A DNA stretch of 64,000 nt from an uncultured Thermoanaerobaculia bacterium (GCA_964507185.1 CAZDOY010000007.1:39260-103259); one strand, 5' to 3'; shown: positions 11,667 to 31,870, counted from the first letter of the stretch. Translations and numbers: made by a program. Notes: a model not told the origin generated them from the letters alone.

Positions 11667-11774
11667 CCCCGGCGGGCCTTCGCCCCGCCTCCCCCTATCC
11701 TGCTACAATGGAACACGACGCCTGAAAACGACGCGGCGCGCGGCCGTGCGGCGCACTCCCAGGGGACGGAAGCC

Positions 11775-14288: not shown

Positions 14289-14311
14289 TGACCGCGCCTT
14301 CGGGCGCAGTC
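14289..14311. terminator. weak GC hairpin between convergent polA and thyX (overlaps thyX stop)
   Basis: gaccgcgccTTCGggcgcagtc; no clean U-run. Confidence 0.25.
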
Positions 14312-15122: not shown

Positions 15123-15229
15123 GACATGTCCTCCGAAAGGCGGTGAGCGACCTGGGCCGGAAGTGCCGGCGGCGAACGCGCAGGCACAGGGTAACCGTCC
15201 GGTGCGGCCGCCGTCAACGGTGCCCGCGC

Positions 15230-15613
15230 TCAACCACCGCGGTGCTTCCTGGGTTCCTCCCGGGGCAGATCCTTCTCGCGCGCCATCCGTCTCGCAAGGC
15301 CGAAACCTCGAAGTAGAACGACGGCCAGGCAAAGCAGGATGACGAGCACGAGAGGAGGGGTTCCGAACCGCCATGCGTAAACCCGCCTCCACAGCAGGAG
15401 GGCATGAACCCCCAGCAACGAACCGAGCACGACGAAGTCCCGCCCGACGCGGGCGTTGGCTGCGAACCAGATTTCGTCGTCGGCCAGGGTCCACGTGGTT
15501 TTGAAACCAAAGACGGGATTCCTAGGTATGAGCTTGAAGGCGAAGGGTGCGCCGAGAAGGATCATGCACGCCGCGGCGATGGCCGGAATGAAGACGACGT
15601 TTGATGCGGTCAT
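15230..15613 (-). CDS. SdpI/YhfL-family small membrane protein (127 aa)
   Basis: MTASNVVFIPAIAAACMILLGAPFAFKLIPRNPVFGFKT... 3-4 TM; strong SD AAGGAGGAAACC before ATG 15613. Confidence 0.55.
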   Translation of the reverse strand: MTASNVVFIPAIAAACMILLGAPFAFKLIPRNPVFGFKTTWTLADDEIWFAANARVGRDFVVLGSLLGVHALLLWRRVYAWRFGTPPLVLVILLCLAVVLLRGFGLARRMAREKDLPREEPRKHRGG

Positions 15614-15838: not shown

Positions 15839-17383
15839 GTGACGAAGCGAATTCTCGTGGCTGACGATGACAAGCTGATCCGGCAGGTCATCGGAGAACT
15901 TCTCTCACACAGCGGTTATGTAGTTGCCGAGGCCGCCAACGGCAAGGAGGTCATGGCCCACGTCAACCTCGCTCCGCCGGACCTCATCATCCTTGACCTG
16001 AAGATGCCCTCGGTGGACGGGTTCCAGGTCCTTGCCTGGCTCAAGGCCGACGAGATCACGCGCTTCATTCCCATCATTGTGATCACGGGCCATGAGGGCC
16101 ATAGCGAAAGGGTGCGGAGCCTGGAACTGGGCGCCGACGACTTCCTCATGAAACCCGTCGAGCATACCGAACTCCTGGCCAGGGTGCACTCTCTCTTGAG
16201 ATTCAAAGGACTCAACGACCAGATGCTGCACAGCTACCGCCAGATAAGCGAACTTGGCCGAATCGCGGAGGATCTCCTCCAGGCCAGGGACCCCATGAGC
16301 CACCTGAGCGAGGCCGTGCTGGGCTCGCTCCTGCGAGAGGAAGTTTCTGAGTCGCTGAGGCCCTCGCGGCTGTGGACGGGCCGGCGTTCCGGCGAGCGAT
16401 TGGGCGGCGTCACCTTTCGACTTGACGATGGGTCCGTGCACAAGGAATCCTCGCATATATCGCTGAAAACGGTGGAATCGTCGCTCGCCGGGGCGAGCAG
16501 GGAAGGCGACCTCTTCTGGGTCAACGGTCCGCTTCCCGGCCCGATCAGCCGTCTCTTCGGAACCGATGGAGCATTGACCTCCATAGTCGGCGTGACGCGG
16601 GAGGCAAACTGGTTCATGGCATCGGGTTACAACCACGCGGTCAATGCCTACGACGGGCAGGTACTGAGAACCATAGCCCTCCAGTGGCAGTTCTTCGATC
16701 GCATAACTGACGAGATGCGTGCCACAGAAGACGCCTTCTTCTACATGATGTCGGCCCTTGCCAGGGCTGCCGAGTTGAACGATCAGGAGACGGGGAACCA
16801 CATCATGCGGGTGAACGCCCAGTCTGCTCTGCTTGCGGAGAAACTCGGCTGTTCGCACGAGTTCGTCAGGTGGATCGGACAGAGCGCCCAGATGCACGAC
16901 GTGGGAAAGATGAGCATCCCGCGGTCTGTGCTTCGCAAGCCCGGCCCGCTGGACAGAGATGAGTGGGCCTGGATTTATCGGCATCCACTTTACGGGGCCC
17001 AGATTCTCGGGGAATCCCCGCGGTTGTCCATGGCCCGGGAAATCGCTCTGGCGCACCACGAAAACTGGGATGGATCGGGCTATCCCACCGGACTCGACAG
17101 CACGAAAATCCCCCTGTCAGCCCGCATCGTCAAGATCGTGGACGTCTACGACGCGCTACGGAGCGCCCGGCCTTACAAGCGGGCCCTGACGCACGAGGAG
17201 ACTCTGGCGATCATCGGCCAGGGTGACAATCGGGTACTGCCGACCCACTTCGATCCCGAGATTCTGTCGTGCTTTATCCACAGCGAATCCAACGTGCACG
17301 ATATCCACCGCGCCTACGCCGACACGGAAACCTCGCCGGGCGACGAGCATACGCCTCCGCCGCATCCCTTCGTAAGGCACTGA
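15839..17383 (+). CDS. response regulator: REC domain, about 200-aa uncharacterised middle region, C-terminal HD-GYP phosphodiesterase domain
   Basis: KRILVADDDKLIRQVIGELL...IILDLKMPSVDGFQVL (REC); C-term ...HDVGKMSIP...ALAHHENWDGSGYPTGL (HD-GYP). GTG 15839 with GGAGG SD; alternative ATG 15782. Confidence 0.8.
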   Translation: MTKRILVADDDKLIRQVIGELLSHSGYVVAEAANGKEVMAHVNLAPPDLIILDLKMPSVDGFQVLAWLKADEITRFIPIIVITGHEGHSERVRSLELGADDFLMKPVEHTELLARVHSLLRFKGLNDQMLHSYRQISELGRIAEDLLQARDPMSHLSEAVLGSLLREEVSESLRPSRLWTGRRSGERLGGVTFRLDDGSVHKESSHISLKTVESSLAGASREGDLFWVNGPLPGPISRLFGTDGALTSIVGVTREANWFMASGYNHAVNAYDGQVLRTIALQWQFFDRITDEMRATEDAFFYMMSALARAAELNDQETGNHIMRVNAQSALLAEKLGCSHEFVRWIGQSAQMHDVGKMSIPRSVLRKPGPLDRDEWAWIYRHPLYGAQILGESPRLSMAREIALAHHENWDGSGYPTGLDSTKIPLSARIVKIVDVYDALRSARPYKRALTHEETLAIIGQGDNRVLPTHFDPEILSCFIHSESNVHDIHRAYADTETSPGDEHTPPPHPFVRH

Positions 17384-17429
17384 GATCGGTCCGACAACCC
17401 CTGCTTCCGACGTGGCGAAGGGGACGGCG

Positions 17430-18836
17430 TCAGACCCTGTGCAGTTTGATCACATTGGTGACTTCCGAGTCGCCCGAGAGCATGGAGAGCGTGACGATCA
17501 CGTTCTGTCCTGGCACCACCAGGCCCGCCCGATGGACGGCTTCCAGTGCCGAAGAGACCGCTTTCTCGGCATCGTAGGACGGCTCCACCCGCAGCGGGAC
17601 GACGCCCCACACGACGGCAAGCCGGTTCAGAACGGCTTCATCCGCGCTGCAGGCCACGATGGGGGCCTCCATGTGAAACTTGGAAAGCAGGCGGGGCATT
17701 CTACCCGTGGGCGTGATGGATATCACGGCGGCGACGCGGAGGTCCTCTGCCGCGCTGGCCGCCGCGTGGCTTGCCGCGTGGTGGAAGTCCGTTACGCCGG
17801 TGAACGGCTGCTGCTCGGGATGGTAGAAGCGGCTGCTTTCGGTTTCCCGCGCGATGCGGCTCAGGACGGAAACCGCCTGCACGGGATAGTTTCCTACGGC
17901 CGATTCGGCGGAAAGCATGACCGCGTCCGTCCCGTCGTAGATGGCGTTGGCGACGTCCGAAACCTCCGCCCGCGTGGGTGTCGGGTGGTCGATCATGGAT
18001 TCGAGCATCTGGGTGGCCGTGATGACGAACTTGCCACGTCGGTTGGCTTCCGCGATGATCGTCTTCTGCGCCTGAGGCACGTGCTCCGGGCCTATCTCTA
18101 CGCCCAGGTCGCCGCGGGCCACCATGACACCGTCGACCTCCTTCAGGATGGCTTCGAGGTTGTCCATGGCCTCGGGCTTCTCGATCTTTGCCACGATCCA
18201 CGGCGGCTTTTCAGCCTTCGTGAGGGTCCTTTTCAGGCCCCGCACGTCGGAGGCCTTGCGCACGAAGGAGAGCGCCACGATATCAACGCCGAGTTTGAGG
18301 CCGAAGGCCAGGTCGTCCTTGTCCTTCTTCGTGAGGGACGGCGCGCTCAGCGCCACGCCCGGGAGGTTGACGCCCTGGTGCGACCGAACGACGCCGCCCC
18401 GGACCACCACCGTCCTTACGTCCGCGGCGACCACCTTCTCGACGCGGACTTCTATGGTCCCATCGGCGAGAAAAACCCTGTCGCCCTTCTTCACATCTTT
18501 CGGCAGGTGCCGATATGTGGTAAAGGCCTTCTGGGCAGTACCTTTGCACGGCTTGGTGACCAGCGTGAAGGCCTCGCCCTCCACGAGCGTGGCCGCGTCC
18601 TCGGAGAACTCGCCCAGCCTGATCTTGGGCCCCTGGAGATCCTGGAGGACGGCCAGCGGGCGCCCGATCCTGCGGCTCACGGAGCGCACTGCGTTGAATC
18701 GCCCCGCGTGATCCTCGTGGGTGCTGTGGGAGAAGTTGAGGCGGGCCACGTCCATCCGCGCTTCCGCCAGTTCAAGAATGCGCTCCTCCGAATGGCTGGC
18801 CGGTCCGAGCGTGCAGACTATCTTGGTGTGGGCCAT
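17430..18836 (-). CDS. pyk: pyruvate kinase (468 aa)
   Basis: MAHTKIVCTLGPASHSEERILELAEARMDVARLNFSHSTHEDH... Confidence 0.9.
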   Translation of the reverse strand: MAHTKIVCTLGPASHSEERILELAEARMDVARLNFSHSTHEDHAGRFNAVRSVSRRIGRPLAVLQDLQGPKIRLGEFSEDAATLVEGEAFTLVTKPCKGTAQKAFTTYRHLPKDVKKGDRVFLADGTIEVRVEKVVAADVRTVVVRGGVVRSHQGVNLPGVALSAPSLTKKDKDDLAFGLKLGVDIVALSFVRKASDVRGLKRTLTKAEKPPWIVAKIEKPEAMDNLEAILKEVDGVMVARGDLGVEIGPEHVPQAQKTIIAEANRRGKFVITATQMLESMIDHPTPTRAEVSDVANAIYDGTDAVMLSAESAVGNYPVQAVSVLSRIARETESSRFYHPEQQPFTGVTDFHHAASHAAASAAEDLRVAAVISITPTGRMPRLLSKFHMEAPIVACSADEAVLNRLAVVWGVVPLRVEPSYDAEKAVSSALEAVHRAGLVVPGQNVIVTLSMLSGDSEVTNVIKLHRV

Positions 18837-18906
18837 ATTCGTACCCCCTCCGCGGTTTCCCTGATACCACGATTCGGCGCCCTCTGGCAACGATCAGAGG
18901 TACTCA

Positions 18907-19170
18907 AGTGACCGAGTGGCCGGGTCGCGGCCATATCTTCGAAGAAAGAAAGCGGGAATAGGTGAGCAGGTAACCTAGTGAGCAGGTCGCGTGCTGACCT
19001 TCGAAGGTTCGTCCCCGGCCGCCCTTTCTTCTTCTTGACCCTCAGCCGTTCGGTCTGAGGCTTCGGAGAAGTGAAACTCCCTGCTTCCCTGCCGTCCTTC
19101 AATCCGCAATCCCAAATCCCAGTTCCCAAGTATCCATAGGGCCTTGGCCCTTAGCCCTTGGGAAAAAACC
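18907..19170 (+). repeat. intergenic repeat family, copy A (longest; contains internal tandem gtgagcaggt x2)
   Basis: modules agtgaccgag / CCTTCGAAGG palindrome / aatccgcaatcccaaatcccag / gaaaaaacc shared with copies at 34325-34541 (inverted), 40370-40500, 50061-50211. Confidence 0.5.
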
Positions 19171-19181
19171 ATCTTCTGCTG

Positions 19182-21737
19182 TCATTTCGCGATAATGCCC
19201 TTGATTCCCCCCGAAATCAGGGAGGCTAGATTGGTCAGGATACTGGGGAGCGCGATGCCCCCCGGAGAGGCGAGGTACCTGGGCTCCCACTGGGGATCGA
19301 ACTTGTCCTTGTACTCCCTCAGGCCCTGGAAATTGTAGAAGTGTTCGCCGTGCAGGAAGATTATCGCACCCAGGCGGTTCCACAGGGGCGCGAGTGAGCG
19401 GTTGTCCAGGCCGGCCAGCGGAGCCATTCCCAGGTTGAACCATCCGTACCCCTCGGATTTGCCCCAAAGCATGAGGTTCGCAAAGAGGTAATCCATGATC
19501 GTGCCGGGCGCATCCGGAAGGTAACGCATCAGGTCTATGGAAAGTTCCTCCTTGCCGGAACTGCCGAAGATGTTGGCGAAGGCCAGGATCCGTCGGTCCT
19601 TCAGGACCACGGCGGCCGGGTAGCGCTTGATGTAGCCCTCGTCGAAGAAGCCCAGCGAGAAGCCCTTCTCCCGAGTATTTTTTTCATCGAGCCAACGGTC
19701 GGAAACCTCCCTGAGCGCATGGATGGAATCAGCGCACTCGTCCGGCGAGAGCACGGCGAACGTGTAGCCCTCGCCGTTCAATCTATTGTGGACGTACCTG
19801 AGGCGCCGGCGGGAGCCTCCTTCCAGGTTGAACCCCTCCAGGGGAACCCGGGCTTCTTCGCCCAGCTTCAACATCGTCAGGCCCATGTCGAGGTAGATGT
19901 GCAGGTTTTCCGGGCGGACTTGGTAAAAGACCGGCCAGCCGTCGTGCCGGTCGCACATCTCCCGGAACGTCCAGCACAGCTCCACCTTGTCCTCGTCCGC
20001 GCCCACCGGGTCGCCCATCACGGTCCAACTCCTGCCCTGGACGGCGTACATCAAAAAGGCCTTTCCCGTGTCGCTGAAAAGGAAGGACTTGTCGCCGAGC
20101 ATCGCCAGGTGGGCGTAGGTCAGCGGCGAAGTGTCCACGACCGATGCGACCCTGTCCATCTCGACGGAGCCCGGCAGGACGGGCTCAGGCGCTATCGGTC
20201 TGAGAAGGCGCCACATTGTAAAAAACAGGAGGGCGCCGATGGTGCCCACCATGGTCCTCATGAACCTGGGCGCCCCCTGGGAGAGGCTGAAACGCCACCA
20301 CAACTCGTTGGAATACTCTACGTGCTTGTAAGCGAAGAAGCCGAGCCACACCGAGCAAAGCAGGACGAGTACGATGGCCGTGATCCAACCCGGACTGAAG
20401 CGCTGGCTGAAGAGGGAGGCCCGCCTGTAGAAAAGCGGCCGGCACGGCAGCAAAACGATGAAGATCACGCCGAGCACCATGGCGGGTTTGTAGTCGAGTC
20501 CCTTCAGGATGGACAGGATCGCGCCGCCGCCCAGAAGCCCGAGAGTGAGGATGTAAGCCGCGTCGATGCGCCTCTGAATGCCACGCGCCAGCAAAAGGAG
20601 GCCCGCGCCCACCAGGCTCCCGAGGAAGTGGGACACCTCCAAGACGGGCAGCGGAAGGAGGTCCCCGATGAGCCTCAGGTCGGCCTTTTCCACCGGCATG
20701 GCGCCGGAAAACAGCAGGATCGCGCCGCCGATGAAGGTGATCAGGGCGAGAAAGTGCGGCGCCAGGGCTGAATACCACTCTCCGAGTGCGCTCGCGGCCT
20801 TCTTCACCAGGTGCCGGCTCTCGATCAGCTCGCTCGCGCCCATGGCGACGGCGGCCACCAGGAGGGGGCCGATGTAGTAGATGGCCCTGTAGGCGAGGAG
20901 GGAGCCCAGAACCGATGCTGTGGAGAAAGATCCGGGCAGGAGCAGAAGCACCGTGGACTCGAAGACCCCCAGGCCTCCGGGGATCTGGCTCACCAGTCCG
21001 CCGAGTTGCGCCAGGAGGAATATGCCCAGAAAACGGGGGTAGGAAAGACCGGTGCCGGACGGCAGCAGCACGTAGAGCACCCCGCCGGCAAGCGCCCAGT
21101 CGAGGGATGAGATGAGCATCTGCTGCAGGGCCATGCCCGGCGAAGGGAGGGGGAACTCCCATCCCCGCCACCGCAGCGGTTCCCTCTTGAGGAAGGTCAG
21201 GACGAAGTAGCCTGCGAGAACGGCCAGGAGGATGAAACCGAGCGGACGGGCCGAGGAGAACGGCAGGTGGTAACTGGCCGGCAGCCTCGGGGGTTCGATC
21301 ACGAAGGACGCCCCGCCCACGGTCAGGACGCCGATCCAGAAGGTCGTCGTACAGAAGGCCACAACGTTGGTGATCTCCACCGCCGAGAGGCCCCAGGCGG
21401 AGTAGAGCCTGTACCGCACGGGCGCCGTCGTGAACAGGTTGAATCCCGCGTTGTTGCTGAAGGCGTATCCGATGAAGGACACCAGGGCGATCCGTCCGTA
21501 ACCCAGAGAAAGCTTGAGGTAATGGAAGGCCAGCGTGTCGTACCCCGTCAGCACGAGGTATCCGAGGAGGGTCAGCAGGACCGCCGCCGCGATCCTGTCG
21601 GGCTGGATCTGCTGGAGCGCCCTGATGACGTCGTGGTAATGATACTTCTTCAGGGCGTCGTGAATGACCCAGAGCGCCAGGACGAAGATGGTGAGGCCGA
21701 AGATCGGCCCCAGGATCCGCAGCACTTTCCGCTTCAT
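19182..21737 (-). CDS. mprF: MprF-family bifunctional lysylphosphatidylglycerol flippase/synthetase (about 850 aa)
   Basis: N-terminal about 14-TM flippase domain, C-terminal DUF2156/lysyl-PG synthase domain (...GEEARVPLEGFNLEGGSRRRLRYVHNRL...); start MKRKVLRILGPIF at 21737. Confidence 0.8.
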   Translation of the reverse strand: MKRKVLRILGPIFGLTIFVLALWVIHDALKKYHYHDVIRALQQIQPDRIAAAVLLTLLGYLVLTGYDTLAFHYLKLSLGYGRIALVSFIGYAFSNNAGFNLFTTAPVRYRLYSAWGLSAVEITNVVAFCTTTFWIGVLTVGGASFVIEPPRLPASYHLPFSSARPLGFILLAVLAGYFVLTFLKREPLRWRGWEFPLPSPGMALQQMLISSLDWALAGGVLYVLLPSGTGLSYPRFLGIFLLAQLGGLVSQIPGGLGVFESTVLLLLPGSFSTASVLGSLLAYRAIYYIGPLLVAAVAMGASELIESRHLVKKAASALGEWYSALAPHFLALITFIGGAILLFSGAMPVEKADLRLIGDLLPLPVLEVSHFLGSLVGAGLLLLARGIQRRIDAAYILTLGLLGGGAILSILKGLDYKPAMVLGVIFIVLLPCRPLFYRRASLFSQRFSPGWITAIVLVLLCSVWLGFFAYKHVEYSNELWWRFSLSQGAPRFMRTMVGTIGALLFFTMWRLLRPIAPEPVLPGSVEMDRVASVVDTSPLTYAHLAMLGDKSFLFSDTGKAFLMYAVQGRSWTVMGDPVGADEDKVELCWTFREMCDRHDGWPVFYQVRPENLHIYLDMGLTMLKLGEEARVPLEGFNLEGGSRRRLRYVHNRLNGEGYTFAVLSPDECADSIHALREVSDRWLDEKNTREKGFSLGFFDEGYIKRYPAAVVLKDRRILAFANIFGSSGKEELSIDLMRYLPDAPGTIMDYLFANLMLWGKSEGYGWFNLGMAPLAGLDNRSLAPLWNRLGAIIFLHGEHFYNFQGLREYKDKFDPQWEPRYLASPGGIALPSILTNLASLISGGIKGIIAK

Positions 21738-21857
21738 CCCGACATCCCCCTGAGTGATGCCCGCATCGTCCTGTCGAAGCATAAATAGTAACACGCCGGG
21801 GCGCGGATGCTTTCTCTGGAAGCGCGTTTTAAGATTGCGGGGCGCCGCCGGGCGGGA

Positions 21858-23444
21858 TCAGGCGGTCTTCTTGGGCGGGATGCGCGAAGCCGCGTATTCG
21901 GCAATCGCCGTGATGGTCAGGCTGGGATTGACGCCCAGGTTGGCCCCGATCACGGAACCGTCCATGACGTACAGGCCCTCGTAGCCGAAAACCCTGCATC
22001 CTCCATCCACCACACCATCTTCGGACGTCTTGCCCATGGGGCATCCGCCGAGTATGTGGGCGGTCGTGGGCACGTTGAGGAGAACCTCGTTGAGGGCGCT
22101 CTGCGGGAAGGCGTTCAGCCGTTTCGAAACCCTTTTGGCCGTTTCGTTGGCGATGGGGATGTAGGGGGGCGCCGGCGGCTGGCCGGGCGGTTGGAAGGAG
22201 GACACGGTACGCCTGAAAGGCCATAACCACCGTCTCTTCATCACGAGCTGGAGGCGGTTGTCGATGGTCTGCATGACCAGGAGGATGAAGGTCTTGCGCG
22301 CCCGGCCGAAGGGCCACAGCGTCCGCAGGAAATCCAGCGGGCGCCGCAGGCAGTTTCCGATCCACTTGAAGGGGCGCGTCAGGGCCGTCCCGCCGTCCGT
22401 GAGCGGCGTGCCCAGGAGACACATGACGTCGGAGCCCCTGGAATAGCGGACGGGCTCTATCCGCGTGTTGCCGTCCGGGAAGTAGTGCGACGTGATGGCG
22501 ATTCCCTCGCACATGTCCGGCCCCTTGCCCCGCACCGTCACGCCGAGCAGGGCCTCGCTGTTGGTGCGGGTATAGGAGCCCAGCGCATCCGAAAGCTGCG
22601 GAAGGGTCCCTCTCCGCTTGCAGTTCAAAAGGAGCGGCACCGAACCCAGCACGCCCGCGGAGAGCACGACGTTGTCGGCGAGGAGGGTGCCTCGGTTCTT
22701 GAAGAGCATCGAGGTGGCGCGCTCCGTGGCCAGCCTGTATCCGCCCTCCGCGAGCGGTTCGATCCCCGTCACGCGGGTTTCTGGCAGAATCTCGGCGCCC
22801 TTTTTCTCCGCGAAGTAGAGATAGTTTTTGTCCAGCGTGTTCTTTGCGCCGGGCCGGCAGCCCACCATGCAGCCGCCGCAGAACGTGCAGCCCGTGCGCG
22901 GCGGCCCCCCGCCGCCGAAGTACGGGTCCGGTACTTCCTTGTCCGGCTCGCCGAAGAAGACCGCCACGTCCGTCGGGTGGAAAGTCCCCTCGACGCCCAT
23001 CTCTCGGGCCACTTCGAGAAGGGCGTCGTCGGCACGCGTCATGCGCGGATTGACCGCGACGCCCAGCATTCTCCGGGCCTCCTCAAAGTGGGGCTCCAGG
23101 ACGGCCTTCCAGTCGTTGAGGTCCTTCCACCTGGGATCTCCGAAGGCTTCGTCCGCGGGCATCATGAGCGTGTTGGCGTAGACGAGGCTTCCACCGCCCA
23201 CGCCGGCCCCGTGCAGAACGAGGACGTCTCTCAGCAGCGTCAGCTGCTGGATCCCGTGACAGAGAACCCTCGGCATCCAGAAGAACTTCCGAAGGTTCCA
23301 GTTGGTCCTGGGGAAATCCTCCGGCCGCCATCGCTTGCCCATCTCGACGACGAGAACGCGGTAGCCCTTCTCGGTGAGGCGGAGGGCGGCAACCGATCCG
23401 CCGAAACCCGACCCCACCACGACGAAATCGTATTTATCAGGCAC
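21858..23444 (-). CDS. GMC-family FAD oxidoreductase (cholesterol/alcohol oxidase-like), 528 aa
   Basis: YDFVVVGSGFGGSVAALRLTEKGYRVLVVEMG (GxGxxG FAD fold) and C-terminal ...AHILGGCPMG...VMDGSVIGANLGVNPSLTITAIAE GMC_oxred_C signature. Confidence 0.8.
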   Translation of the reverse strand: MPDKYDFVVVGSGFGGSVAALRLTEKGYRVLVVEMGKRWRPEDFPRTNWNLRKFFWMPRVLCHGIQQLTLLRDVLVLHGAGVGGGSLVYANTLMMPADEAFGDPRWKDLNDWKAVLEPHFEEARRMLGVAVNPRMTRADDALLEVAREMGVEGTFHPTDVAVFFGEPDKEVPDPYFGGGGPPRTGCTFCGGCMVGCRPGAKNTLDKNYLYFAEKKGAEILPETRVTGIEPLAEGGYRLATERATSMLFKNRGTLLADNVVLSAGVLGSVPLLLNCKRRGTLPQLSDALGSYTRTNSEALLGVTVRGKGPDMCEGIAITSHYFPDGNTRIEPVRYSRGSDVMCLLGTPLTDGGTALTRPFKWIGNCLRRPLDFLRTLWPFGRARKTFILLVMQTIDNRLQLVMKRRWLWPFRRTVSSFQPPGQPPAPPYIPIANETAKRVSKRLNAFPQSALNEVLLNVPTTAHILGGCPMGKTSEDGVVDGGCRVFGYEGLYVMDGSVIGANLGVNPSLTITAIAEYAASRIPPKKTA

Positions 23445-23551
23445 GTCGCTCTCCCCATGAACATGGTCCTGATGCGAGGGCCTCGTTCACCGCAGACTCG
23501 CTGACTCGCTGAGACGCGTGGAAGACCTGTCCGCGCGCGTCAGGTTCTCTC

Positions 23552-25192
23552 TCAGGTTCTCTCGAAGATGCGCCTTGCCTCGCCGAGTTCCCGCGCGGAA
23601 GGCGTCAGGATGGTCCGGGCATGGATGCGTATCTTCCGGCCGTCGTGGGCGGCGGTCCGGACGTCGGCCTCGCAGACGAAATCCACCGGCCCTTCGGCCC
23701 GGCGCGCGGGAGTCGCCGTGGCGTTGGCACCGGCCCTGCCGGTGGCCGCCACGGCCGGCCGGCCCATCTTCTGTGCCACGAACCGCCTGGCCGCATTCTC
23801 CAGCCCGGTGCCGCTCTTCACGAGGGGCGGAAGCGGCACGGGCTTTTCGTCCGTTACCGGGCGGGTCTCGAAGGCCACGCGCTTGCGGTCGATGAGGTGG
23901 AGCGGCGTGATGTTGTCGCTCGTGATGTTGTTGCCGAGGACGCCGCATCCCAGGGTCATGGCGGGGGGCAGGTTGGTGGAGTATCCGATGGCCCCGTGCG
24001 TGCCGGGCGAGTTCACGATGATCCGGAACGCAGGCTTCTTCAGGGCGAACTGGCGGACGACGTTTAGGTCCTGGGTGTGGAGGGTGAGGGTATGGCCCAG
24101 TCCTCCGTACTTGAGAACCTCGATACAGCGCAGGCACCCGGCCTCCCAACCGTCCGCCTCATAGTAGGAAAGGATCGGGGAGAGCTTTTCCAGGGACAGG
24201 GGATAGTCCCTCCCCACGCCCCCTTCGGGCGCAATGAGTGCGCGCACGGAGTCGGGGACGGAAAAACCGGCCATGGTGGCTATGACCTGGGGCGACCGGC
24301 CCACCACCTTCGGGTTGAGGCGGCCGTCACTGTCCACCACCAGGGCTTCGAGAAGCGCCTTTTCTCTCGGGTTGACGAAATAGCCTCCCGCTTTCTCGAA
24401 CTCCTCCCTGGCTTTTTCCGCGATCGGAAGATCGACGATCACCGACTGCTCGCTGGCACACACGGTGCCCCAGTCGAAGGACTTTCCGGCGATCACGTCC
24501 TTTGCGGCCTTCCGAACGACGGCCGTCCGCTCTATGAAGGACGGCACGTTGCCCGGACCGACGCCGTAGGCGGGCTTGCCCGAGGAATACGCCGCGTTGA
24601 CGAGCCCCATCCCCCCGGTGGCCAGGATCACGTTGATGCCGGAATGGCGCATGAGGGCCTGCGTGTCCTCGATGGACGGGTTGGGGATGATACCGATGAT
24701 GCCCCGGGGGGCCCCCGCGGCGACGGCCGCGTCGTGCATGGCGTCCGCCACGGTCTTGATGCAGTTCTTTGCGGCGGGGTGGGGGGAGATCACGATGCCG
24801 TCCAGGGCCTTGAGGGCGATCATGATCTTGTAGATGGCCGTCGACGTCGGGTTGGTGGACGGGATCACAGCCGCCACCACGCCCATGGGCGAGGCCACTT
24901 CGTAGATACCCTGGCCGGGGTCCGCACTGAGAAAACCGACCGTCTTCAGGGGGCGGATGTAGCGGTAGACGTCCTCCGCGCCCACGCGGTTCTTGATTGT
25001 CTTGTCGGCTGTGGTGCCGTAGCCCGTTTCCTCGTGGGCCATCCTCGCCCACTTTTCGAGATTCGGCATGCAGACCTGGTGGAGAGCGTCGATTATCTTA
25101 TCCACCTGGTCCTGGGTAAAGGATGTGAAGGCTTGCTGGGCACGCCTGACGGATGCAACGACGCGATCCACCTCGGAACTGGCCATGGTCAA
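23552..25192 (-). CDS. CoA-acylating aldehyde dehydrogenase (EutE/PduP family) with about 85-aa C-terminal extension
   Basis: ...FDWGTVCASEQSVIV... catalytic Cys context of EutE/PduP; core about 460 aa then Ala/Pro-rich linker and module DFVCEADVRTAAHDGRKIRIHARTILTPSARELGEARRIF. Confidence 0.85.
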   Translation of the reverse strand: MTMASSEVDRVVASVRRAQQAFTSFTQDQVDKIIDALHQVCMPNLEKWARMAHEETGYGTTADKTIKNRVGAEDVYRYIRPLKTVGFLSADPGQGIYEVASPMGVVAAVIPSTNPTSTAIYKIMIALKALDGIVISPHPAAKNCIKTVADAMHDAAVAAGAPRGIIGIIPNPSIEDTQALMRHSGINVILATGGMGLVNAAYSSGKPAYGVGPGNVPSFIERTAVVRKAAKDVIAGKSFDWGTVCASEQSVIVDLPIAEKAREEFEKAGGYFVNPREKALLEALVVDSDGRLNPKVVGRSPQVIATMAGFSVPDSVRALIAPEGGVGRDYPLSLEKLSPILSYYEADGWEAGCLRCIEVLKYGGLGHTLTLHTQDLNVVRQFALKKPAFRIIVNSPGTHGAIGYSTNLPPAMTLGCGVLGNNITSDNITPLHLIDRKRVAFETRPVTDEKPVPLPPLVKSGTGLENAARRFVAQKMGRPAVAATGRAGANATATPARRAEGPVDFVCEADVRTAAHDGRKIRIHARTILTPSARELGEARRIFERT

Positions 25193-25255
25193 CCTCTACG
25201 GAAGAAGACGGCGAAACGCATGCCATGCGCTCCGCGCTTCAGGGCTCCGCCGGCT

Positions 25256-25597
25256 TTAGGAGCCTCGGGGTCTGCGCGACTTGGGCTTTGCGGCGCGTTT
25301 GCCGGGCTCGTCCGCCTCGGGAGGTTGCGGGATGATGCCCTCCACCTGGTCGTAGGGCATCGGGATGACGTGGACCGAAACCAGGTCTCCCACGCGCCGT
25401 GCCGCGGCCGCCCCGGCGTCCGTGGCCGCCTTGACGGCGCCCACGTCCCCCCTGACCATCACCGTGACGTACGCGCTGCCGATGTATTCCTTGCCGACGA
25501 GGACCACCTTTGCGGCCTTCACCATGGCGTCGGCCGCCTCGATGGCCGCTACCAGCCCGCGCGTCTCGATCATGCCCAAGGCTTCCCGGTTAAGCAT
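25256..25597 (-). CDS. bacterial microcompartment shell protein, BMC-H (PduA/EutM/CcmK family, PF00936), 113 aa with basic C-terminal tail
   Basis: [70 protein letters not shown] is roughly 70-75% identical to PduA as I recall it. Confidence 0.9.
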
Positions 25598-25625
25598 CCC
25601 CTGTCGTTCCTCCCTTCAAGAATCG

Positions 25626-25654
25626 AGCATAGAAGACCTCGGCAGCCCTGTCAA
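25626..25654 (-). promoter_or_regulatory. candidate sigma-70 promoter for BMC-H/aldehyde dehydrogenase operon (TTGACA-17-TATGCT on minus strand)
   Basis: minus-strand reading ttgacagggctgccgaggtcttctatgct then GGGAGG SD and ATG 25597. Confidence 0.4.
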
Positions 25655-25717
25655 TAATGGGAGGCGGTAGAGGTAAACCAACAATCCAGCGTCCAATTCC
25701 GAAATCAACCACCCTTG

Positions 25718-25736
25718 GCGTTACCGAATGTAACGC
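25718..25736. promoter_or_regulatory. perfect 7-bp inverted repeat GCGTTAC-N5-GTAACGC about 80 bp upstream of sigma-54 promoter (candidate enhancer/UAS)
   Basis: gcgttaccgaatgtaacgc read directly; position typical for bEBP sites. Confidence 0.35.
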
Positions 25737-25796
25737 TTTGGGCGGGGGGCAAGGGGAGCTATAATTACAAAGCTAGGTATGTAGGGATCGAAGGCA

Positions 25797-25811
25797 TGGC
25801 ACGGAGATTGC
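25797..25811 (+). promoter_or_regulatory. sigma-54 (-24/-12) promoter TGGCAC-N5-TTGC upstream of minor pilin operon
   Basis: tggcacggagattgc matches consensus TGGCAC-N5-TTGCW exactly; GAGGAGG SD and ATG 25836 follow. Confidence 0.55.
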
Positions 25812-25835
25812 CTAACCTTAATAGAGGAGGCATAT

Positions 25836-26426
25836 ATGCGCGAAGGGGGCCGGCAAGACCCGAACTCTAAAGCATTGGGTTTCACGCTGCTAGAAGTCCT
25901 TGTCGTGGTCGCGATCCTGGGGCTCATCGCAACCATTCTCACGGTGGCCGTCAGCAACGCGATCAAGAGGCAGCGGCTGGACACGGCCGCCCAGCAGTTG
26001 CGCAGCTTCATGGACAGAGCCTACGTGTCGACGACACAGACGGGAAACGGCATATTCGTTCAGATCGGCGCGGAGCGGACGGACGGGTCCAGGCTCGTGA
26101 GGCTCATAGAGGACAGCAATTCGAATAAGACGCTCGACAGTACGGACCAGGTCCTGGCGACGGAAACCATAACGAGTGATCTCGTCCTGTCCAATTCCTC
26201 CACCGCGGCAACCGCCTGGCCCGTTATCGGCGGCTCTCTGGTGATGCTCTGCGACTCAATGGGGCGGGCCATCAATCCGAACACGGGCCTCCAGATTTCC
26301 CAGGACCTTACGATTTCATTGACGCACACCGACATGACGGGATCCGGTACGTTAACCCCAAGGCTTCGGTACGACATCCGTCTGTACCCACTGTGGAGCC
26401 CGTCTTTGACCGAGGTGAGACTATGA
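25836..26426 (+). CDS. type IV pilus minor pilin / pseudopilin (FimT/GspH-like) with prepilin N-terminal methylation motif
   Basis: ...KALGFTLLEVLVVVAILGLIATIL... class III signal peptide. Confidence 0.7.
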   Translation: MREGGRQDPNSKALGFTLLEVLVVVAILGLIATILTVAVSNAIKRQRLDTAAQQLRSFMDRAYVSTTQTGNGIFVQIGAERTDGSRLVRLIEDSNSNKTLDSTDQVLATETITSDLVLSNSSTAATAWPVIGGSLVMLCDSMGRAINPNTGLQISQDLTISLTHTDMTGSGTLTPRLRYDIRLYPLWSPSLTEVRL

Positions 26427-26956
26427 GAGCCCAATTGAATCGGCGCGTGCCGGAAAAAGCGGAGGGAGAGAAGGGCAGCAGCCTCATAGAGGTGCTCGTG
26501 GCACTTCTGATCATGCTCTTCCTCATGATCGGCATCCTGCAGATGTTCGCCCTGTCCTACCTGGTAAATCTGGGCTCGGCGGCCCGCACCGAGCTAACCT
26601 ACAAGTGCGAGCAGGTGATGGAGAACGTTCGCTACTTTTCCTATTTGTCCCATGAAGGGATAGCGCTCCCCGCTAATACCGGCATTACCTTCGCGGCAGG
26701 GACCTACGACCTTCCCTATTCGGGGAGCGCCGTGGCCAGTTCTTACTGGGGGCCGACCCAGGCCGACGTCGTGGAAGGCGAGGACATGCCCTACCGCCTG
26801 TCCGTCGAGGTCCAGGATGGCGATACTCATGGCGTGGCGGGCCAGTGGATCGTGACCGTTTCGGCCGTGCCGTCCGAGGTTCAGGGCGCCCGCAAGTACA
26901 TTGGCGTGGGCATCGAACACAAGAGGGTTGATTATGTCGCTCAGTTACCGAAGTAG
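26423..26956 (+). CDS. pilV: type IV pilus minor pilin, PilV-like
   Basis: ...EGEKGSSLIEVLVALLIMLFLMIGIL...; ATGA overlap with upstream gene; +1 residue Ser instead of Phe. Confidence 0.6.
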   Translation: MRAQLNRRVPEKAEGEKGSSLIEVLVALLIMLFLMIGILQMFALSYLVNLGSAARTELTYKCEQVMENVRYFSYLSHEGIALPANTGITFAAGTYDLPYSGSAVASSYWGPTQADVVEGEDMPYRLSVEVQDGDTHGVAGQWIVTVSAVPSEVQGARKYIGVGIEHKRVDYVAQLPK

Positions 26957-28079
26957 ACGAAAAGATAAGGGCTTCACGCTCATCGAGGCCACCATCTCCC
27001 TCACCCTCCTGCTGGTGGTGTTGATCGTCTCCCTGACGTTTCTCTTCTCCATGCGGACCTTCTCCCAGCGACAGGAGATGTTCACGTCGCCGAGGCAGAC
27101 GGCCCGGCGCGCGCTCGACTACCTGACCTACTACGTCCGTGGAGCCGGTGATCTGAACCAGGAGCAGGACAATCCGAACGCCATCGTGGTGTGGTACGCG
27201 AACGGTTCGGCGACCCCCGTCCAGGCCTCGTACGACAACGTGACCAATGCGAACTTTGCGGACAAGGGCACCGACCTGATCAACCTGGCCATACCGCCTC
27301 TGTCCCCCATCAGCGCGCAGTATATTCCTTCGAGTGGGAGCGCCTCGACGGGGATCGTCGCCTTTTCGGCGGGATGCGGCACCTCGGACGACGACACGGC
27401 GAACAAGGATCTGTTCAAGACGCTGACGGGGTGCTGCGACGCCAGCGGCAACAGCCCCATCATGACCCTCGTGGACCACAACGGGGACTGGGCCTACTTT
27501 CAGATCACCGGTTACCAAGACAGCGACTGTGCCGGCAAACCCACGACGAGCCCTCCGACCCCGCCGGGCGTCCACATCACCGCCAACTACGGGAATTCGT
27601 TGGGCATCAACCCGCCGGGGGGGCCTGTTCTCGATGAGCCCTATTACCTGAAAGTGGGCGTTTTTTACTACAGCTTCCGCGTCAAGAACGGCCAGCTCCA
27701 GCAGAAGAGCGGCGTTTTCAACCCAACCAAGCCCGATGACGGATTCGTCACCCTTCTGGATAACGTGGAGGATTTGCAAATCGCCTACATATACGACGAT
27801 GGAACCATTTGGAACAGCGCCGCCCAGACGCTGGTCACAACGGGCGACGTTCCCACCCAGCCGGGCACGGGTACCGCGGCGCCCCCCGACATCCGGAGCG
27901 TGACGGGACTCAGGATCACCATCGTGGGACGGTCGGTCCAGCTCCCCGTCACGATGCTCAGCCACGACAAGTACTCGCGGCCGGCAGCCGAGAACCACGC
28001 GGGCGGCCTGGCGGATCGCTTCTACCACTACCGGCTCACGGATACGGTGATGCTCCGCAACCGGATGCTGGGGAGATGA
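26934..28079 (+). CDS. pilW: type IV pilus minor pilin, PilW-like (381 aa)
   Basis: MSLSYRSRRKDKGFTLIEATISLTLLLVVLIVSL... Confidence 0.65.
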   Translation: MSLSYRSRRKDKGFTLIEATISLTLLLVVLIVSLTFLFSMRTFSQRQEMFTSPRQTARRALDYLTYYVRGAGDLNQEQDNPNAIVVWYANGSATPVQASYDNVTNANFADKGTDLINLAIPPLSPISAQYIPSSGSASTGIVAFSAGCGTSDDDTANKDLFKTLTGCCDASGNSPIMTLVDHNGDWAYFQITGYQDSDCAGKPTTSPPTPPGVHITANYGNSLGINPPGGPVLDEPYYLKVGVFYYSFRVKNGQLQQKSGVFNPTKPDDGFVTLLDNVEDLQIAYIYDDGTIWNSAAQTLVTTGDVPTQPGTGTAAPPDIRSVTGLRITIVGRSVQLPVTMLSHDKYSRPAAENHAGGLADRFYHYRLTDTVMLRNRMLGR

Positions 28080-28675
28080 CCATGAAAGAGAGAGGTAGCG
28101 CACTCATTACGGTCGTACTGGTCGTCCTGGTCCTGACCATGGTTGGCATCGCCGGCGCCCTGTTCATGCAGGTCGAAGACAGGGTTTCCAAGAACGACGA
28201 ACTCCAGCAGGCGGGGCTGTACGCAGCCGAAGCCGGCCTGCGGGTGGGCGAAAAGCTGGTCTACGACGCGGCGGTTTCCAATAGCGACTCGCTCAACACG
28301 ATGCTCGCCCACATCTCAACCACCGTTCCCGACCTCCAGCCTCCGGGCGAGGGCTATACGGCGGTGGTGTTGGCTGATCCGACTTCGGGCGTCGAGTACG
28401 CGAACGTGGTCATTCCGGTTCCGTCGGGAATCGTGGCGCGGGCCACGTACACGCTGTACGTGCGCAACAACATGGACGACGTCACCCACAGCGCCACGGT
28501 CGACGGCGACAGCAAGGTGAATCTCATCGCTGTGGGCGAGGTCCAGGATTCGTCTGGAAGGCGTGTCGTGGAGAAGATCGTTGAAGAGCAGATGGACGCA
28601 GGCGGCGCCGGAGGGCAACATGGTCCAGAACTCGGGGGCAGCATGGCCGGAACAGGCGCCTCCGGTGTCAACTAG
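28076..28675 (+). CDS. pilX: type IV pilus assembly protein PilX-like
   Basis: MTMKERGSALITVVLVVLVLTMVGIAGALF... PilX N-terminal domain; ATGA overlap with pilW. Confidence 0.65.
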   Translation: MTMKERGSALITVVLVVLVLTMVGIAGALFMQVEDRVSKNDELQQAGLYAAEAGLRVGEKLVYDAAVSNSDSLNTMLAHISTTVPDLQPPGEGYTAVVLADPTSGVEYANVVIPVPSGIVARATYTLYVRNNMDDVTHSATVDGDSKVNLIAVGEVQDSSGRRVVEKIVEEQMDAGGAGGQHGPELGGSMAGTGASGVN

Positions 28676-28696
28676 GCGTTGTGAAGGAGAACTGAC

Positions 28697-31600
28697 ATGT
28701 TTACGGTGGGAAGAGTAAAGAGAACGGCAGCGGGGATTATTGTGCTGCTGGGCGTTCTGTGGGCCTTGCCGTCCCCCGCGGCCGAAGGCTACGACCCCAT
28801 GCTACAGATCACGCACCAGCTCGCGCGGCCGGACATCTACATGGTCCAGGACACCAGCGGGTCCATGGCGTGGGATATCAACGGACACAGCGTGGGCGTG
28901 GACAGCGTGGGAGAAACGCCTTCCGGCGAGTGGATAGTTTCAAAGTCGGGCTGCAGCGACAGCGATTGCAGGCACTGGTACTACAAGCTCAGGGTCTACC
29001 AGACTCTGCCCAGCCGCATGGCGAAGCTGAAGAACGCCCTCGGCAACAGCGTGACCATCATCACGGCCTGGGAGCCGCCCGGCGAGTGGACCACGGACAC
29101 CTCCTACGGCTACATCACCAACACGAACTGGAAGCACGGTACGATCAGCGGCCCGTCGGTCTCGACCCATTCGACGTACCGGGATTACGAGTGGGAGATC
29201 GACTTTGGCCGGAGACATCACGAGCCGGATCCCGGTAGTCCCTTCACGGCTTACGATGGGTCCGACACCATGACCGTGGGGACGGGCGGTGTTTCTCTCC
29301 CGCCGGCCGACCTCGTCGGACAAACCTCCGGCGTGGTCAACTGGGGCCTCATCACCTTTGGCGGGTCCTGCAGCAGTTACAGCTACCATCTGCAGGTGCC
29401 CATAGATTCCAACGACACGGGCGACGTCTCGGCCATCGAAGCCAAGCTCCGCCTGCACAGAGACGGCGGCCTCAACGCCAACGGGAGTACCCCCACGCGG
29501 GGAGCCCTCCAATTCGCCGCGACCGAACTGACGCAGACGTTCAATGCCGATCCCAAGTACATGTGCAACAGGGCGTACGGCGCCATCCTCGTCACCGATG
29601 GCGAATCCAACGCCTGCAATCCGTACAGTTCGACCTGGTCGAACTGCTCCACAGAGGCTCAAACAAATTATACGCAGTACCCCGCCGGAAAATCCGAAGA
29701 GATCTGGAACCTGAATCTGACCCGCGGCGGCTCGGCACCGAGAAACGTTCGGACCTGGGTCATCGGCGTCAGCAACGAAGTCGGCCCGTGTGAGCTCAAT
29801 TACACCGCCTACATGGGGCGGACCGATGCCTCCAGCCCGAATGGGGACGCTGGCTTCGATACCGTCAATGACCCCTACCTGCCGACCAGCACGGGCGATA
29901 CGAGCCACTACACGATAAACAGCACCCACCCCGGCTACGCCTATTTTGCGACCGCGTCAGGCGCGCTCGAGGATGCCTTCGCGGCCATCGTAGCGGCCGT
30001 AGCGGTGGGCGACTACACGACCTCGGCCCCCGTGGCCACCTCCACCACCAACGTTGCCAATCTGGCGCTTCTGCCTTCGGCCCAATACCCCACCTGGAAG
30101 GGACACCTCTACGCGTTCGACCTCACCAAGCCGTCCACGGACCCCAATTACGAGCTTTGGGATGCCGGCGAAGTTCTCGCTTCCACGGCCGCTTCGAGCA
30201 GAAACATCTACACGTGGGACGCCAGTAACAAACTGGTCGCGGTAACGAGCAAGAATCTCTCGACGCTTCAGAGCATCGCCACGGCCTTCACGCCGTCGTT
30301 CAGCGGGAGCAGTCTCACGAGCAATGTCGTGGACTTCATCCGCGGCAACGACGGCAACGGTACGCCCAGGACCTGGAAACTGGGTGCCGTCATCAATTCG
30401 ACACCAGCGGTCGTCGTCGCCCCGGAGAAGTACAAGCGTGGCAAGGCTCAGGATCACACGGGCTTCGAGAGCGAGTATGCGAACAGGACGCCGGTCGTAT
30501 GGGTGGGCTCCGATGACGGCATGATGCACTGCTTCAAGCTTTCGGACGGTTCGGAAGTACTGGCGCTGCTGCCGCCGAATCTCCTGTCGCAGCAGGTCCA
30601 GCTCTACGACCACTACCTGGCCAAGCCGGTGGACAACCCCACGGGCGAGCCCAGAATAACCTCCCAACAAGTGTACGGAGTGGCCTCCTCCCCCAGGTAC
30701 GGCGACGTCTATTTCGGCTCACCCACGAAGGACTACAAGACGGTTTTGCTTCTCACCGAAGGGCCGGGAGGCGACCTGGTGGCTGCCGTGGATGTGACCG
30801 ACGTCGTGCCCACGGACACCACCTATGTCGCTCCGAGCATCCTGTGGACACGGACGGGGTCTTCACCGAGTTCGCTCCTGACTTCCGGGCTACACAAGAC
30901 GTGGAGCGTGCCGGCCTTCGGTTACGACTCGCAGACTACCGCCAAGGGCGTCATGGGGGCGGGCTTCGATCCTTCGAGTACGGCCGCTTCCCAGGTCGCG
31001 CCCGACGTTTTCACCTTGAATCCCGGCACGGGTGTGTTCACGACATCGAGCCTGTCCAACGGGACTTCGCCGCTCGTAGGGAACCAGGCCTTTGCGGCCA
31101 GCGTCATCTTCAACAAGACGGACAACGCCTTTTACGCGGACAGCATCGTGGATCTCGGCTTGCAGGCGGACCTCAACGGGCGCATATGGTTCCTGCCGGC
31201 GAAGACGTGGGCCCCCACGATCGGGATCGATGCGACGGCCAAGGCCGGCCAGACCCAACCCATCTACTATTCACCGGCTGCGACCGGGTTCGTACAAGGC
31301 AGTCTGCACTACGACCTCTATGCCTTCGCCAGCGGGACTTTCTATGAACAATCTCCGACGGTTACCGGCCCCAATGTGGGAACATCGGGCTACTTCATCC
31401 CGTCGTTCTACATCGTGGCCAAGCCCATGGATGCCACGAAGGCCACCAACGACGAGATCCTTCAAATCCCCATCAAGAGCGTCAATGTGCCGGGCAGTAC
31501 GGACACTTTCCTGGGACCGCGAAGCCAGGTGACGGCACCCCCCATGGTCTTCGTCCCCGTGTCGGGCACGGGTAACCCGGTCGCCCTGTTCCTGGTCTAC

Positions 31601-31870
31601 GATCCAGATACCGCGGATTGCGGTGGGACATCCTACATCGTCAAGATAAGCTTCGACATAAAGGACGGAAAGCCTGCGACGGTCAGCCAGACGACCTACG
31701 AAGCGGGAGAGGGCGCCGGCAGCGGCTTCGCCCTCGCGGGCGGTAAAGTCATCGTTGCCAGGAGCGGGATCGGAGCGGGACAGAAGGCCAGTGTCAGCAC
31801 TGTTCCCGATCTCAATCCCACGGAGGGACTCTCGAATCCCACCCCGACCTGGTGGCGCGAGCTTAAGTAG
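28697..31870 (+). CDS. pilY1: PilY1/PilC-like type IV pilus tip-associated adhesin (1057 aa), N-terminal vWA-like, C-terminal beta-propeller-like
   Basis: signal peptide; MIDAS-like DTSGSM; size and position after fimT-pilV-pilW-pilX. Confidence 0.75.
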   Translation: MFTVGRVKRTAAGIIVLLGVLWALPSPAAEGYDPMLQITHQLARPDIYMVQDTSGSMAWDINGHSVGVDSVGETPSGEWIVSKSGCSDSDCRHWYYKLRVYQTLPSRMAKLKNALGNSVTIITAWEPPGEWTTDTSYGYITNTNWKHGTISGPSVSTHSTYRDYEWEIDFGRRHHEPDPGSPFTAYDGSDTMTVGTGGVSLPPADLVGQTSGVVNWGLITFGGSCSSYSYHLQVPIDSNDTGDVSAIEAKLRLHRDGGLNANGSTPTRGALQFAATELTQTFNADPKYMCNRAYGAILVTDGESNACNPYSSTWSNCSTEAQTNYTQYPAGKSEEIWNLNLTRGGSAPRNVRTWVIGVSNEVGPCELNYTAYMGRTDASSPNGDAGFDTVNDPYLPTSTGDTSHYTINSTHPGYAYFATASGALEDAFAAIVAAVAVGDYTTSAPVATSTTNVANLALLPSAQYPTWKGHLYAFDLTKPSTDPNYELWDAGEVLASTAASSRNIYTWDASNKLVAVTSKNLSTLQSIATAFTPSFSGSSLTSNVVDFIRGNDGNGTPRTWKLGAVINSTPAVVVAPEKYKRGKAQDHTGFESEYANRTPVVWVGSDDGMMHCFKLSDGSEVLALLPPNLLSQQVQLYDHYLAKPVDNPTGEPRITSQQVYGVASSPRYGDVYFGSPTKDYKTVLLLTEGPGGDLVAAVDVTDVVPTDTTYVAPSILWTRTGSSPSSLLTSGLHKTWSVPAFGYDSQTTAKGVMGAGFDPSSTAASQVAPDVFTLNPGTGVFTTSSLSNGTSPLVGNQAFAASVIFNKTDNAFYADSIVDLGLQADLNGRIWFLPAKTWAPTIGIDATAKAGQTQPIYYSPAATGFVQGSLHYDLYAFASGTFYEQSPTVTGPNVGTSGYFIPSFYIVAKPMDATKATNDEILQIPIKSVNVPGSTDTFLGPRSQVTAPPMVFVPVSGTGNPVALFLVYDPDTADCGGTSYIVKISFDIKDGKPATVSQTTYEAGEGAGSGFALAGGKVIVARSGIGAGQKASVSTVPDLNPTEGLSNPTPTWWRELK

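Follow-up and report, generated by a model that had tools for sequence, protein, structure and literature searches.

A stretch of 64,000 nucleotides from an uncultured Thermoanaerobaculia bacterium (GCA_964507185.1, CAZDOY010000007.1:39260-103259), referred to below as the window and used whole for all position counts, carries on its minus strand a gene for a hexameric bacterial microcompartment shell protein (BMC-H) followed by a gene for a CoA-acylating aldehyde dehydrogenase (AldDh). We consider it probable, at roughly 60%, that this pair is an aldehyde-handling satellite module of the ACI metabolosome, the shell of which would be encoded elsewhere in the genome. ACI is a microcompartment type exclusive to Acidobacteria (Sutter et al., 2021, Nat Commun, PMC8217296, Supplementary Data 2). 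What is shown is that the promoter is conserved, that the shell hexamer gene is intact, that the acylating AldDh is intact as well and carries a helix, a linker and a folded tail, and that the pair is conserved across related genomes. An earlier note on this DNA, made from the sequence alone, had described an orphan operon in which a neighbouring flavoenzyme of the GMC family was joined to the shell gene and the dehydrogenase. The microcompartment content of that description is real but already catalogued, and the link to the flavoenzyme is spurious. New here are a lineage-specific motif at the edge of the hexamer and a homology lead for the tail of AldDh.

The shell protein and the aldehyde dehydrogenase

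Open reading frame (ORF) analysis found BMC-H, AldDh, the GMC oxidoreductase and mprF as four minus-strand genes in the places where the earlier note had put them, together with the near-consensus promoter that it had described upstream of the shell gene (Table 1). The shell protein matched the Pfam BMC domain PF00936 at residues 6-81 with E = 2.7e-27, spanning the whole 75-position profile, and was 66% identical to E. coli EutM over 94 aa. A PDB sequence search returned PduA and EutM at E = 1e-37 to 1e-32. The core of the AlphaFold2 (AF2) model had a pLDDT of ~90, and Foldseek aligned the model with PduA and EutM structures at E about 1e-12 and TM 0.88-0.94 (normalised by target length), so that the BMC fold stands; the identity to PduA, previously put at about 70% by eye, was 74% to the S. 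enterica protein (PDB 3NGK). That the protein is a BMC-H of the PduA/EutM class is beyond doubt.

The basic tail that had been remarked on at the C-terminus of the shell protein is real and predicted to be disordered, with pLDDT below 50 at residues 97-113. Tails of the same character, variable in both length and sequence, are found on the AldDh-linked hexamers of relatives, which makes the tail a family trait. In solved shells the termini of BMC-H proteins lie on the concave, cytosol-facing side, and if this is so here, the basic tail would point outwards.

The edge motif of the window protein is PMPY. Among the 120 best BMC-H clusters, 45 had this motif, 54 had the PRPH of PduA and EutM, six had PMPF and two had PLPY, while PRPF was present in one subclade of the window protein's relatives. 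Hexamers with PMPY are thus a large natural clade and not a single oddity. Homologues with PRPH that lie on long contigs (P0203 and P0204) are again paired with AldDh in housekeeping surroundings. The same searches turned up metagenome proteins of 187-198 aa (P0121, P0124, P0125, P0126 and P0131) in which a short linker joins two tandem PduA-like BMC domains; they appear to be BMC-H fusions of natural origin and resemble the engineered one in PDB 6NER. Two further proteins, P0122 and P0142, appear to be artefacts of assembly or duplication.

The catalytic core of AldDh (residues ~1-445) matched Pfam Aldedh (PF00171) and, at residues 5-444, the acetylating acetaldehyde dehydrogenase PDB 5J78 (E = 1.5e-136). 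Its GTVCASEQ stretch aligned with GTICASEQ of 5J78, the stretch that holds the catalytic cysteine in this family. Against the equivalog model NCBIfam TIGR02518, acetaldehyde dehydrogenase (acetylating), it scored 553 bits, under the cut-off of 620. The enzyme is a member of the CoA-acylating family, but a score at this level does not assign it a substrate. The ORF opens at TTG 25192 (546 aa), and the start is likely the ATG at 25186 (544 aa), which is also used by JGI gene calls on identical contigs. The spacer from BMC-H, earlier given as 63 nt, has that length if counted to the TTG and is 69 nt to the ATG; the spacer between AldDh and the GMC gene is 107 nt (23445-23551) rather than the 108 nt stated.

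An AlphaFold model of the AldDh tail (the last ~100 residues) was built on 55 sequences. The check for an encapsulation peptide (EP) that the earlier note had called for found an amphipathic helix, LENAARRFVAQKM, at residues 27-39 of the modelled tail, with low-confidence Pro/Ala-rich linkers on both sides and a folded domain at the very end of the protein. The AldDhs of other Acidobacteriota also have an EP-type helix, a long variable linker and the same terminal domain. The Thermoanaerobaculum-type subclade (L026, L027, L029 and L030) is a separate case: its enzymes keep the terminal domain, a Tyr/Lys-rich stretch (e.g., PLEIYGYDYKQKK) replaces the amphipathic helix, and its hexamers are short (97-99 aa), ending in RRKK or GGKK.

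The AldDh was used to scan species-representative genomes, which yielded 80 loci that were annotated locally with profiles and whose ORFs were clustered all against all. Forty-nine of these loci are of Acidobacteriota type, and the counts for the pair and for the GMC gene use these. AldDh was present in all 49 and BMC-H in 45, immediately upstream and on the same strand, and no other gene family was conserved beside the pair across the 49 loci, RecJ being found downstream in one subgroup. The surroundings vary by lineage, with pilus genes in the window and its close relatives and RecJ, SecA, IleS and cell-wall genes elsewhere. The promoter of the window, which matches consensus at 10 of 12 positions, was the top of six promoter-like sites in 17000-26200, for which shuffled sequences led us to expect 1.6. 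A TTGACA-N17/18-TAT(G/C)CT site lies ~40-57 nt 5' of the BMC-H start in most of the relatives checked (L012, L013, L015, L017, L019, L020, L024, L025, L032 and L033), in upstream DNA that has otherwise diverged. Because only AldDh and BMC-H recur and the promoter site is conserved, the unit is a two-gene module with its own promoter, and the trio operon proposed previously reduces to these two genes.

The exact shell-protein sequence occurs on nine metagenome contigs, with the same arrangement wherever neighbours are visible, indicating a real population and not an accident of assembly. Orthologues of AldDh are 65-97% identical in Thermoanaerobaculia-type metagenome-assembled genomes (MAGs), the closest of them being named Acidobacteriota, Thermoanaerobaculia or Thermoanaerobaculum, and 46-52% identical in other Acidobacteriota. 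In a neighbour-joining (NJ) tree of 86 AldDh cores, the window clade nests among the tail-bearing Acidobacteriota enzymes, together with one Planctomycetales sequence that is presumed to be MIC3-type.

The spacer between the two genes contains a stem-loop, which is a weak feature, terminator-like sites not being enriched in the region (8 against 6.4 expected from shuffles). It is a possible partial terminator or stability element setting the ratio of shell protein to enzyme, and may hold hexamer output above enzyme output.

Table 1. Features of the BMC-H/AldDh locus and the genes downstream of it, in window coordinates
Feature	Position	Strand	Basis or remark
Sigma-70-type promoter, TTGACA-17 nt-TATGCT	25626..25654	-	Direct reading; 29 nt 5' of the BMC-H start codon
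BMC-H hexameric shell protein, 113 aa	25256..25597	-	ORF, Pfam, fold comparison
Disordered C-terminal tail of the shell protein (~residues 90-113), Pro/Glu-rich then Lys/Arg-rich	25259..25330	-	Predicted model
Stem-loop in the BMC-H/AldDh spacer, 11 pairs (6 G-C), then CGTCTTCTTC	25211..25235	-	Terminator-like scan
CoA-acylating aldehyde dehydrogenase (AldDh), 544 aa from ATG 25186	23552..25186	-	Pfam, NCBIfam, PDB match
EP-like amphipathic helix of AldDh, residues 462-474	23765..23803	-	AF2
Terminal ~44-aa beta-alpha-beta-alpha-beta domain of AldDh, residues 501-544	23555..23686	-	pLDDT 93-96
GMC oxidoreductase, 528 aa	21858..23444	-	GMC_oxred_N and GMC_oxred_C both match
mprF, followed by pyruvate kinase (pyk)	19182..21794	-	NCBIfam bifunctional MprF, 955 bits

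A possible shell-docking domain at the end of AldDh

The AldDh tail matched no Pfam family, and a fold search with the terminal domain gave no PDB match below E = 0.66. The motif of the domain, DFVxEaDVRxA...TiiTPsARELGe..iF, has F, V, E, A, T, P and A positions that are invariant in the 55 sequences. A profile built from 36 acidobacterial tails was compared with 15 E. coli Eut proteins, among which it matched EutT at residues 3-41 (15.0 bits) and EutQ at residues 8-39 (13.9 bits), with the next best protein scoring below 0. The best of 2000 shuffles of each N-terminus reached 8.9 bits for EutT and 10.7 bits for EutQ. The two matches have E = 1e-5 among the 15 Eut proteins and E = 0.02-0.05 in a database of 14,628 ORFs. 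In Salmonella, EutQ residues 9-41 (H1/H2) bind the Eut shell and residues 62-99 bind cargo peptides (2025, PMC12487888), and the EutQ match reported here coincides with the published shell-binding stretch. By sequence likeness, this suggests that the terminal domain of AldDh may be a shell-docking module, most simply onto the hexamer encoded by the neighbouring gene.

The same profile matched the C-terminus of an unannotated protein of ~270 aa, at a TiiSPlAkdL motif, with E = 0.002-0.005 in the 14,628 ORFs. This protein is encoded between EutM and EutN (L047:12593-13408 and equivalents) in about 12 Firmicutes EUT loci and belongs to no Pfam family; its N-terminus, MEIKQLVESIVRELV, resembles an EP. 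A bolder proposal would make the terminal domain an unrecognised, widely reused shell-docking module, shared by EutQ, EutT and the Firmicutes protein, with the basic-tailed PMPY hexamer as its dedicated receptor, and perhaps with a hexamer-only, aldehyde-trapping scaffold in Thermoanaerobaculia that has neither vertex proteins nor a closed shell. Taken as a whole this is speculative, and we hold it to be rather improbable.

If the pair is a satellite module of the ACI metabolosome, the AldDh helix would gather the enzyme with other cargo in the core of the compartment, and the terminal domain would attach it to the shell, in the manner of the N-terminal helices of EutQ in Eut compartments. The hexamer from the neighbouring gene would join or modify the shell facets, with the vertex proteins supplied by genes in another part of the genome. 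The enzyme that generates the aldehyde would also lie elsewhere and, by analogy with ACI, would be a class II aldolase giving lactaldehyde. Inside, AldDh would use NAD+ and CoA to turn the toxic aldehyde (lactaldehyde or acetaldehyde, again by analogy) into an acyl-CoA.

Alternative readings and neighbouring genes

The earlier note had seen no vertex gene, second shell gene or signature enzyme within 64 kb, and similarity, profile and Pfam searches agree with it. Searches with tblastn using E. coli EutM, EutK, EutL and EutS found one BMC domain in the window and no second, and those with EutN (best E = 0.19), EutB, EutC and EutA found no significant match in it. A profile for the vertex protein, BMC-P, was built from 31 EutN-type sequences and scores the Haliangium vertex protein at 87 bits; it found nothing in the window among stop-to-stop segments of 50 aa or more in all six frames. 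Pfam annotation of the ~48 predicted genes of the window contained no aldolase, diol/ethanolamine lyase, glycyl-radical enzyme or PduL. Across these searches, the absences leave the pair alone within the 64 kb, and the word orphan is true at this scale only.

The comparison with a catalogue of microcompartment loci, also called for in the earlier note, gives this isolation a different colour, as the layout matches the published ACI satellite (PMC8217296). In the main ACI locus, a BMC-P triplet and BMC-H accompany a class II aldolase (PF00596) and a 2-hydroxyacid dehydrogenase (PMC8217296). The absence of BMC-P from the vicinity of the pair is as the catalogue describes and so argues neither for nor against orphan status. 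The earlier suggestion that the shell gene is a satellite of a microcompartment with its locus elsewhere was right in kind, matching the ACI satellite, although the satellite unit is the pair and not the shell gene alone.

Several points weigh against reading the pair as an ACI satellite. The window holds no BMC-P, aldolase or 2-hydroxyacid dehydrogenase, none lay closer than 10 kb to the pair in the Acidobacteriota loci that were fetched, and a main ACI locus in this lineage is assumed. Thermoanaerobaculia is not known to belong to either subdivision 4 or subdivision 6 of the phylum, where the catalogue mainly places ACI. The shell protein departs from the canonical facet-tiling edge, keeping the lysine and losing the arginine of PRPH, which raises doubt that it tiles as a standard facet hexamer, even though the fold family itself is secure. 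The likeness to EutQ and EutT is weak, at 14-15 bits over ~35 residues, and no recognisable EP helix was seen by eye in the AldDh tails of L026, L027, L029 and L030. The NJ tree was built without bootstrap values and without reference sequences from the catalogue.

Further searches sought a main locus for this lineage. The Haliangium BMC-P, the sequence of which was verified against PDB 5V74, gave 120 listed clusters that are all at least 73% identical, and two of these on megabase-scale contigs (P0300 and P0305) were Haliangium-type loci. Thermoanaerobaculum was not found among the entries listed in the supplementary files of Sutter et al. (2021), which says little, and literature searches combining Thermoanaerobaculia with microcompartments found nothing relevant.

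The best surviving alternative, which we nonetheless consider unlikely, is that the pair is a self-contained, hexamer-only module, in which sheets, tubes or free hexamers of the PMPY protein would scaffold or cluster AldDh via its helix and terminal domain and so restrict the loss of aldehyde with no sealed shell. It would explain why the 64 kb, and the DNA up to 10 kb from the pair in ~49 loci, contain no other shell gene, and why the two genes move together as an independent unit under their own promoter. It would also suit the loss of the edge arginine, which extends to 53 of the 120 best clusters (PMPY, PMPF or PLPY) and would alter lateral packing: in PduA, Arg-79 has the most buried surface of any residue at the contact between hexamers, and in the R79A variant flat sheets replace nanotubes (PMC4139245). 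Furthermore, loci termed 'satellite-like' and regarded as structurally incomplete already have a place in the catalogues. However, the catalogued ACI genomes carry the same module plus a distant main locus (PMC8217296), so absence in the vicinity of the pair is expected and uninformative. The EP helix is also conserved in the window's own subclade, such helices being known from enclosed cargo, and a functional enzyme scaffold made of BMC-H only was not found in the literature examined.

Far less credible is the pathway put forward in the earlier note, by which the GMC flavoenzyme would oxidise an alcohol to an aldehyde and the shell-associated AldDh would convert this to acyl-CoA, all within one operon. 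The two genes do share a strand across a short gap in which no terminator-like site was called, and their adjacency is kept in several close relatives. The flavoenzyme, however, falls closest to the cholesterol oxidases, with NCBIfam NF058674 as its best family (646 bits, against a cut-off of 850) and 1COY and 1B4V as its top PDB matches. Cholesterol oxidases convert a secondary alcohol to a ketone, not to an aldehyde. The protein opens directly with the FAD-binding GxGxxG and its GMC_oxred_C match runs to residue 515 of 528, which leaves no room for an EP, and neither end has a targeting extension.

The distribution of the GMC gene also speaks against a role with AldDh. It is found near the pair in 14 of the 49 loci and is absent from the neighbourhood in the other 35, and the 14 are close relatives with AldDhs at least 72% identical and with shared pilus/mprF/pyk synteny. 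Two opposite-strand genes (273 and ~600 aa) lie between AldDh and the GMC gene in L017, L021, L025 and L074, which rules out an obligate common transcript, and the spacer measures ~830 nt (11636-12466) in the 97%-identical relative L012. We judge the GMC oxidoreductase, mprF and pyk to be ordinary neighbours that lie outside the microcompartment module.

The least tenable alternative is that the pair is decaying, left over from a microcompartment locus that has been lost, and no longer has a function: its isolation from other microcompartment genes in the window would fit this, but both ORFs are intact, the shell sequence recurs unchanged on the nine metagenome contigs, AldDh orthologues keep their architecture from 97% down to 65% identity, the promoter is conserved, and terminal-domain residues are invariant across 55 sequences.

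Within the stretch at 19182-23444 (minus strand), the steadier companions of the GMC gene are mprF and pyk. In some relatives (L023, L031 and L032) its partner is a shorter MprF-related ORF of ~330 aa, followed by pyruvate kinase. These partners are a hint that the function of the flavoenzyme may lie with membrane lipids and not with microcompartments.

On the other side of the pair, a type IV pilus minor pilin/PilY1 cluster (25836-31870, plus strand) diverges from the shell gene, with synteny kept in close relatives only. It contains three proteins with N-methyl motifs, PilW-like and PilX_N-like proteins and a PilY1-like protein of 1057 aa. Between the BMC-H promoter and the first, pilin-like gene at 25836 there is a perfect inverted repeat, GCGTTAC-N5-GTAACGC (25718-25736), and GTTAC-N5/6-GTAAC is found in a comparable position in L015, L023, L031 and L032. 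The repeat is a possible operator, controlling one or other of the divergent units.

The remaining Pfam-annotated genes of the window are of a housekeeping character. Besides the pilus cluster they include CysS, MnmA, HemC/D, PolA, ThyX and an HD-GYP response regulator, and also an OPT transporter, BamD, Rpe, AccD, FolC, LpxC, TopA, DprA, ComEC and ECF sigma factors. Scans of the window for tRNAs and Rfam families gave no matches. At 42821-46893 (minus strand), two regulators of HTH_11/WYL/WCX type flank a sigma-54 activator with an N-terminal FHA domain. The longest ORF of CysS (3602-5677, minus strand) has 691 aa with the catalytic domain from residue 244, and that of ThyX (14310-15494, minus strand) has 394 aa with the domain from residue 150, against 263 aa in the gene call of a relative. 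These N-terminal extensions are probably over-extended starts in GC-rich DNA and not real fusions.

Comparison with known microcompartment systems

The hexamers of PduA and EutM (PDB 3NGK, 3I6P and 4AXJ) have the BMC fold in common with the window protein, at 71-78% identity. The edge lysine of PduA, K26, is kept as K27, and a PduA-like pore loop is kept as well (IGSAY against IGSGL). The differences lie at the edge and at the C-terminus. The PRPH motif of PduA and EutM (Arg79, His81) is PMPY in the window protein (M80, Y82), and the position of N29 is a lysine (K30), the PduA numbering for N29 and R79 being checked only against the offset of the PDB chain. PduA is also without the 24-aa disordered basic tail. 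If confirmed, this would be a natural family of shell hexamers without the edge arginine that is thought to be central to facet tiling.

AldDhs of the EutE/PduP class and of Firmicutes EUT loci (PDB 5J78 and 3K9D) have the same catalytic core as the window enzyme, with the conserved Cys-containing motif and an EP. Core identity is ~50% to the AldDhs from complete EUT loci of Paenibacillus, Cohnella and Brevibacillus, and E. coli EutE is just 28% identical. In the Firmicutes enzymes the encapsulation helix is the end of the protein, whereas in the window AldDh it is internal to a long C-terminal extension with an extra folded domain. That domain has in common with the EutQ H1/H2 region and the EutT N-terminus a motif of ~35 residues (an acidic/aromatic start, DVR/IRxA, then iiTPxAREl) placed at a protein terminus, although the EutQ region is described as helical and the model of the AldDh domain also has short strands. 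If confirmed, the EutQ lead would tie the ~50-aa domain of ACI AldDhs to a shell-binding region, providing an explanation of cargo attachment that can be tested.

The closest comparison is with the ACI satellite, which belongs to a microcompartment type that is catalogued and experimentally untouched. The finding extends this type to another acidobacterial class, and also does away with an attractive but mistaken connection to the flavoenzyme nearby. Both the window locus and the ACI satellite have an Acidobacteriota host and an AldDh gene that lies away from the genes for vertex proteins. The ACI satellite AldDh has an EP near its C-terminus, followed by a domain of unknown function of ~50 aa (PMC8217296), and the window AldDh has the same layout of helix, linker and terminal domain. 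Genes for BMC-H are 'occasionally' found with ACI AldDh, and one class among them has PRPF, an unusual motif (PMC8217296), so that a BMC-H beside AldDh and a non-standard edge motif are features of the ACI satellite as well as of the window pair. The ACI AldDhs are related to the MIC3 enzymes of Planctomycetes, and the window AldDh may share this relationship, its clade falling in the same radiation as a Planctomycetales sequence in the NJ tree. There are differences too. The BMC-H of the ACI satellite has PRPH or PRPF, whereas that of the window has PMPY, with the arginine lost; the gene stands beside AldDh occasionally in the catalogue and in nearly all of the loci here; and the catalogued hosts come mainly from subdivisions 4 and 6 (Sutter et al., 2021), whereas the host of the window is Thermoanaerobaculia-like.

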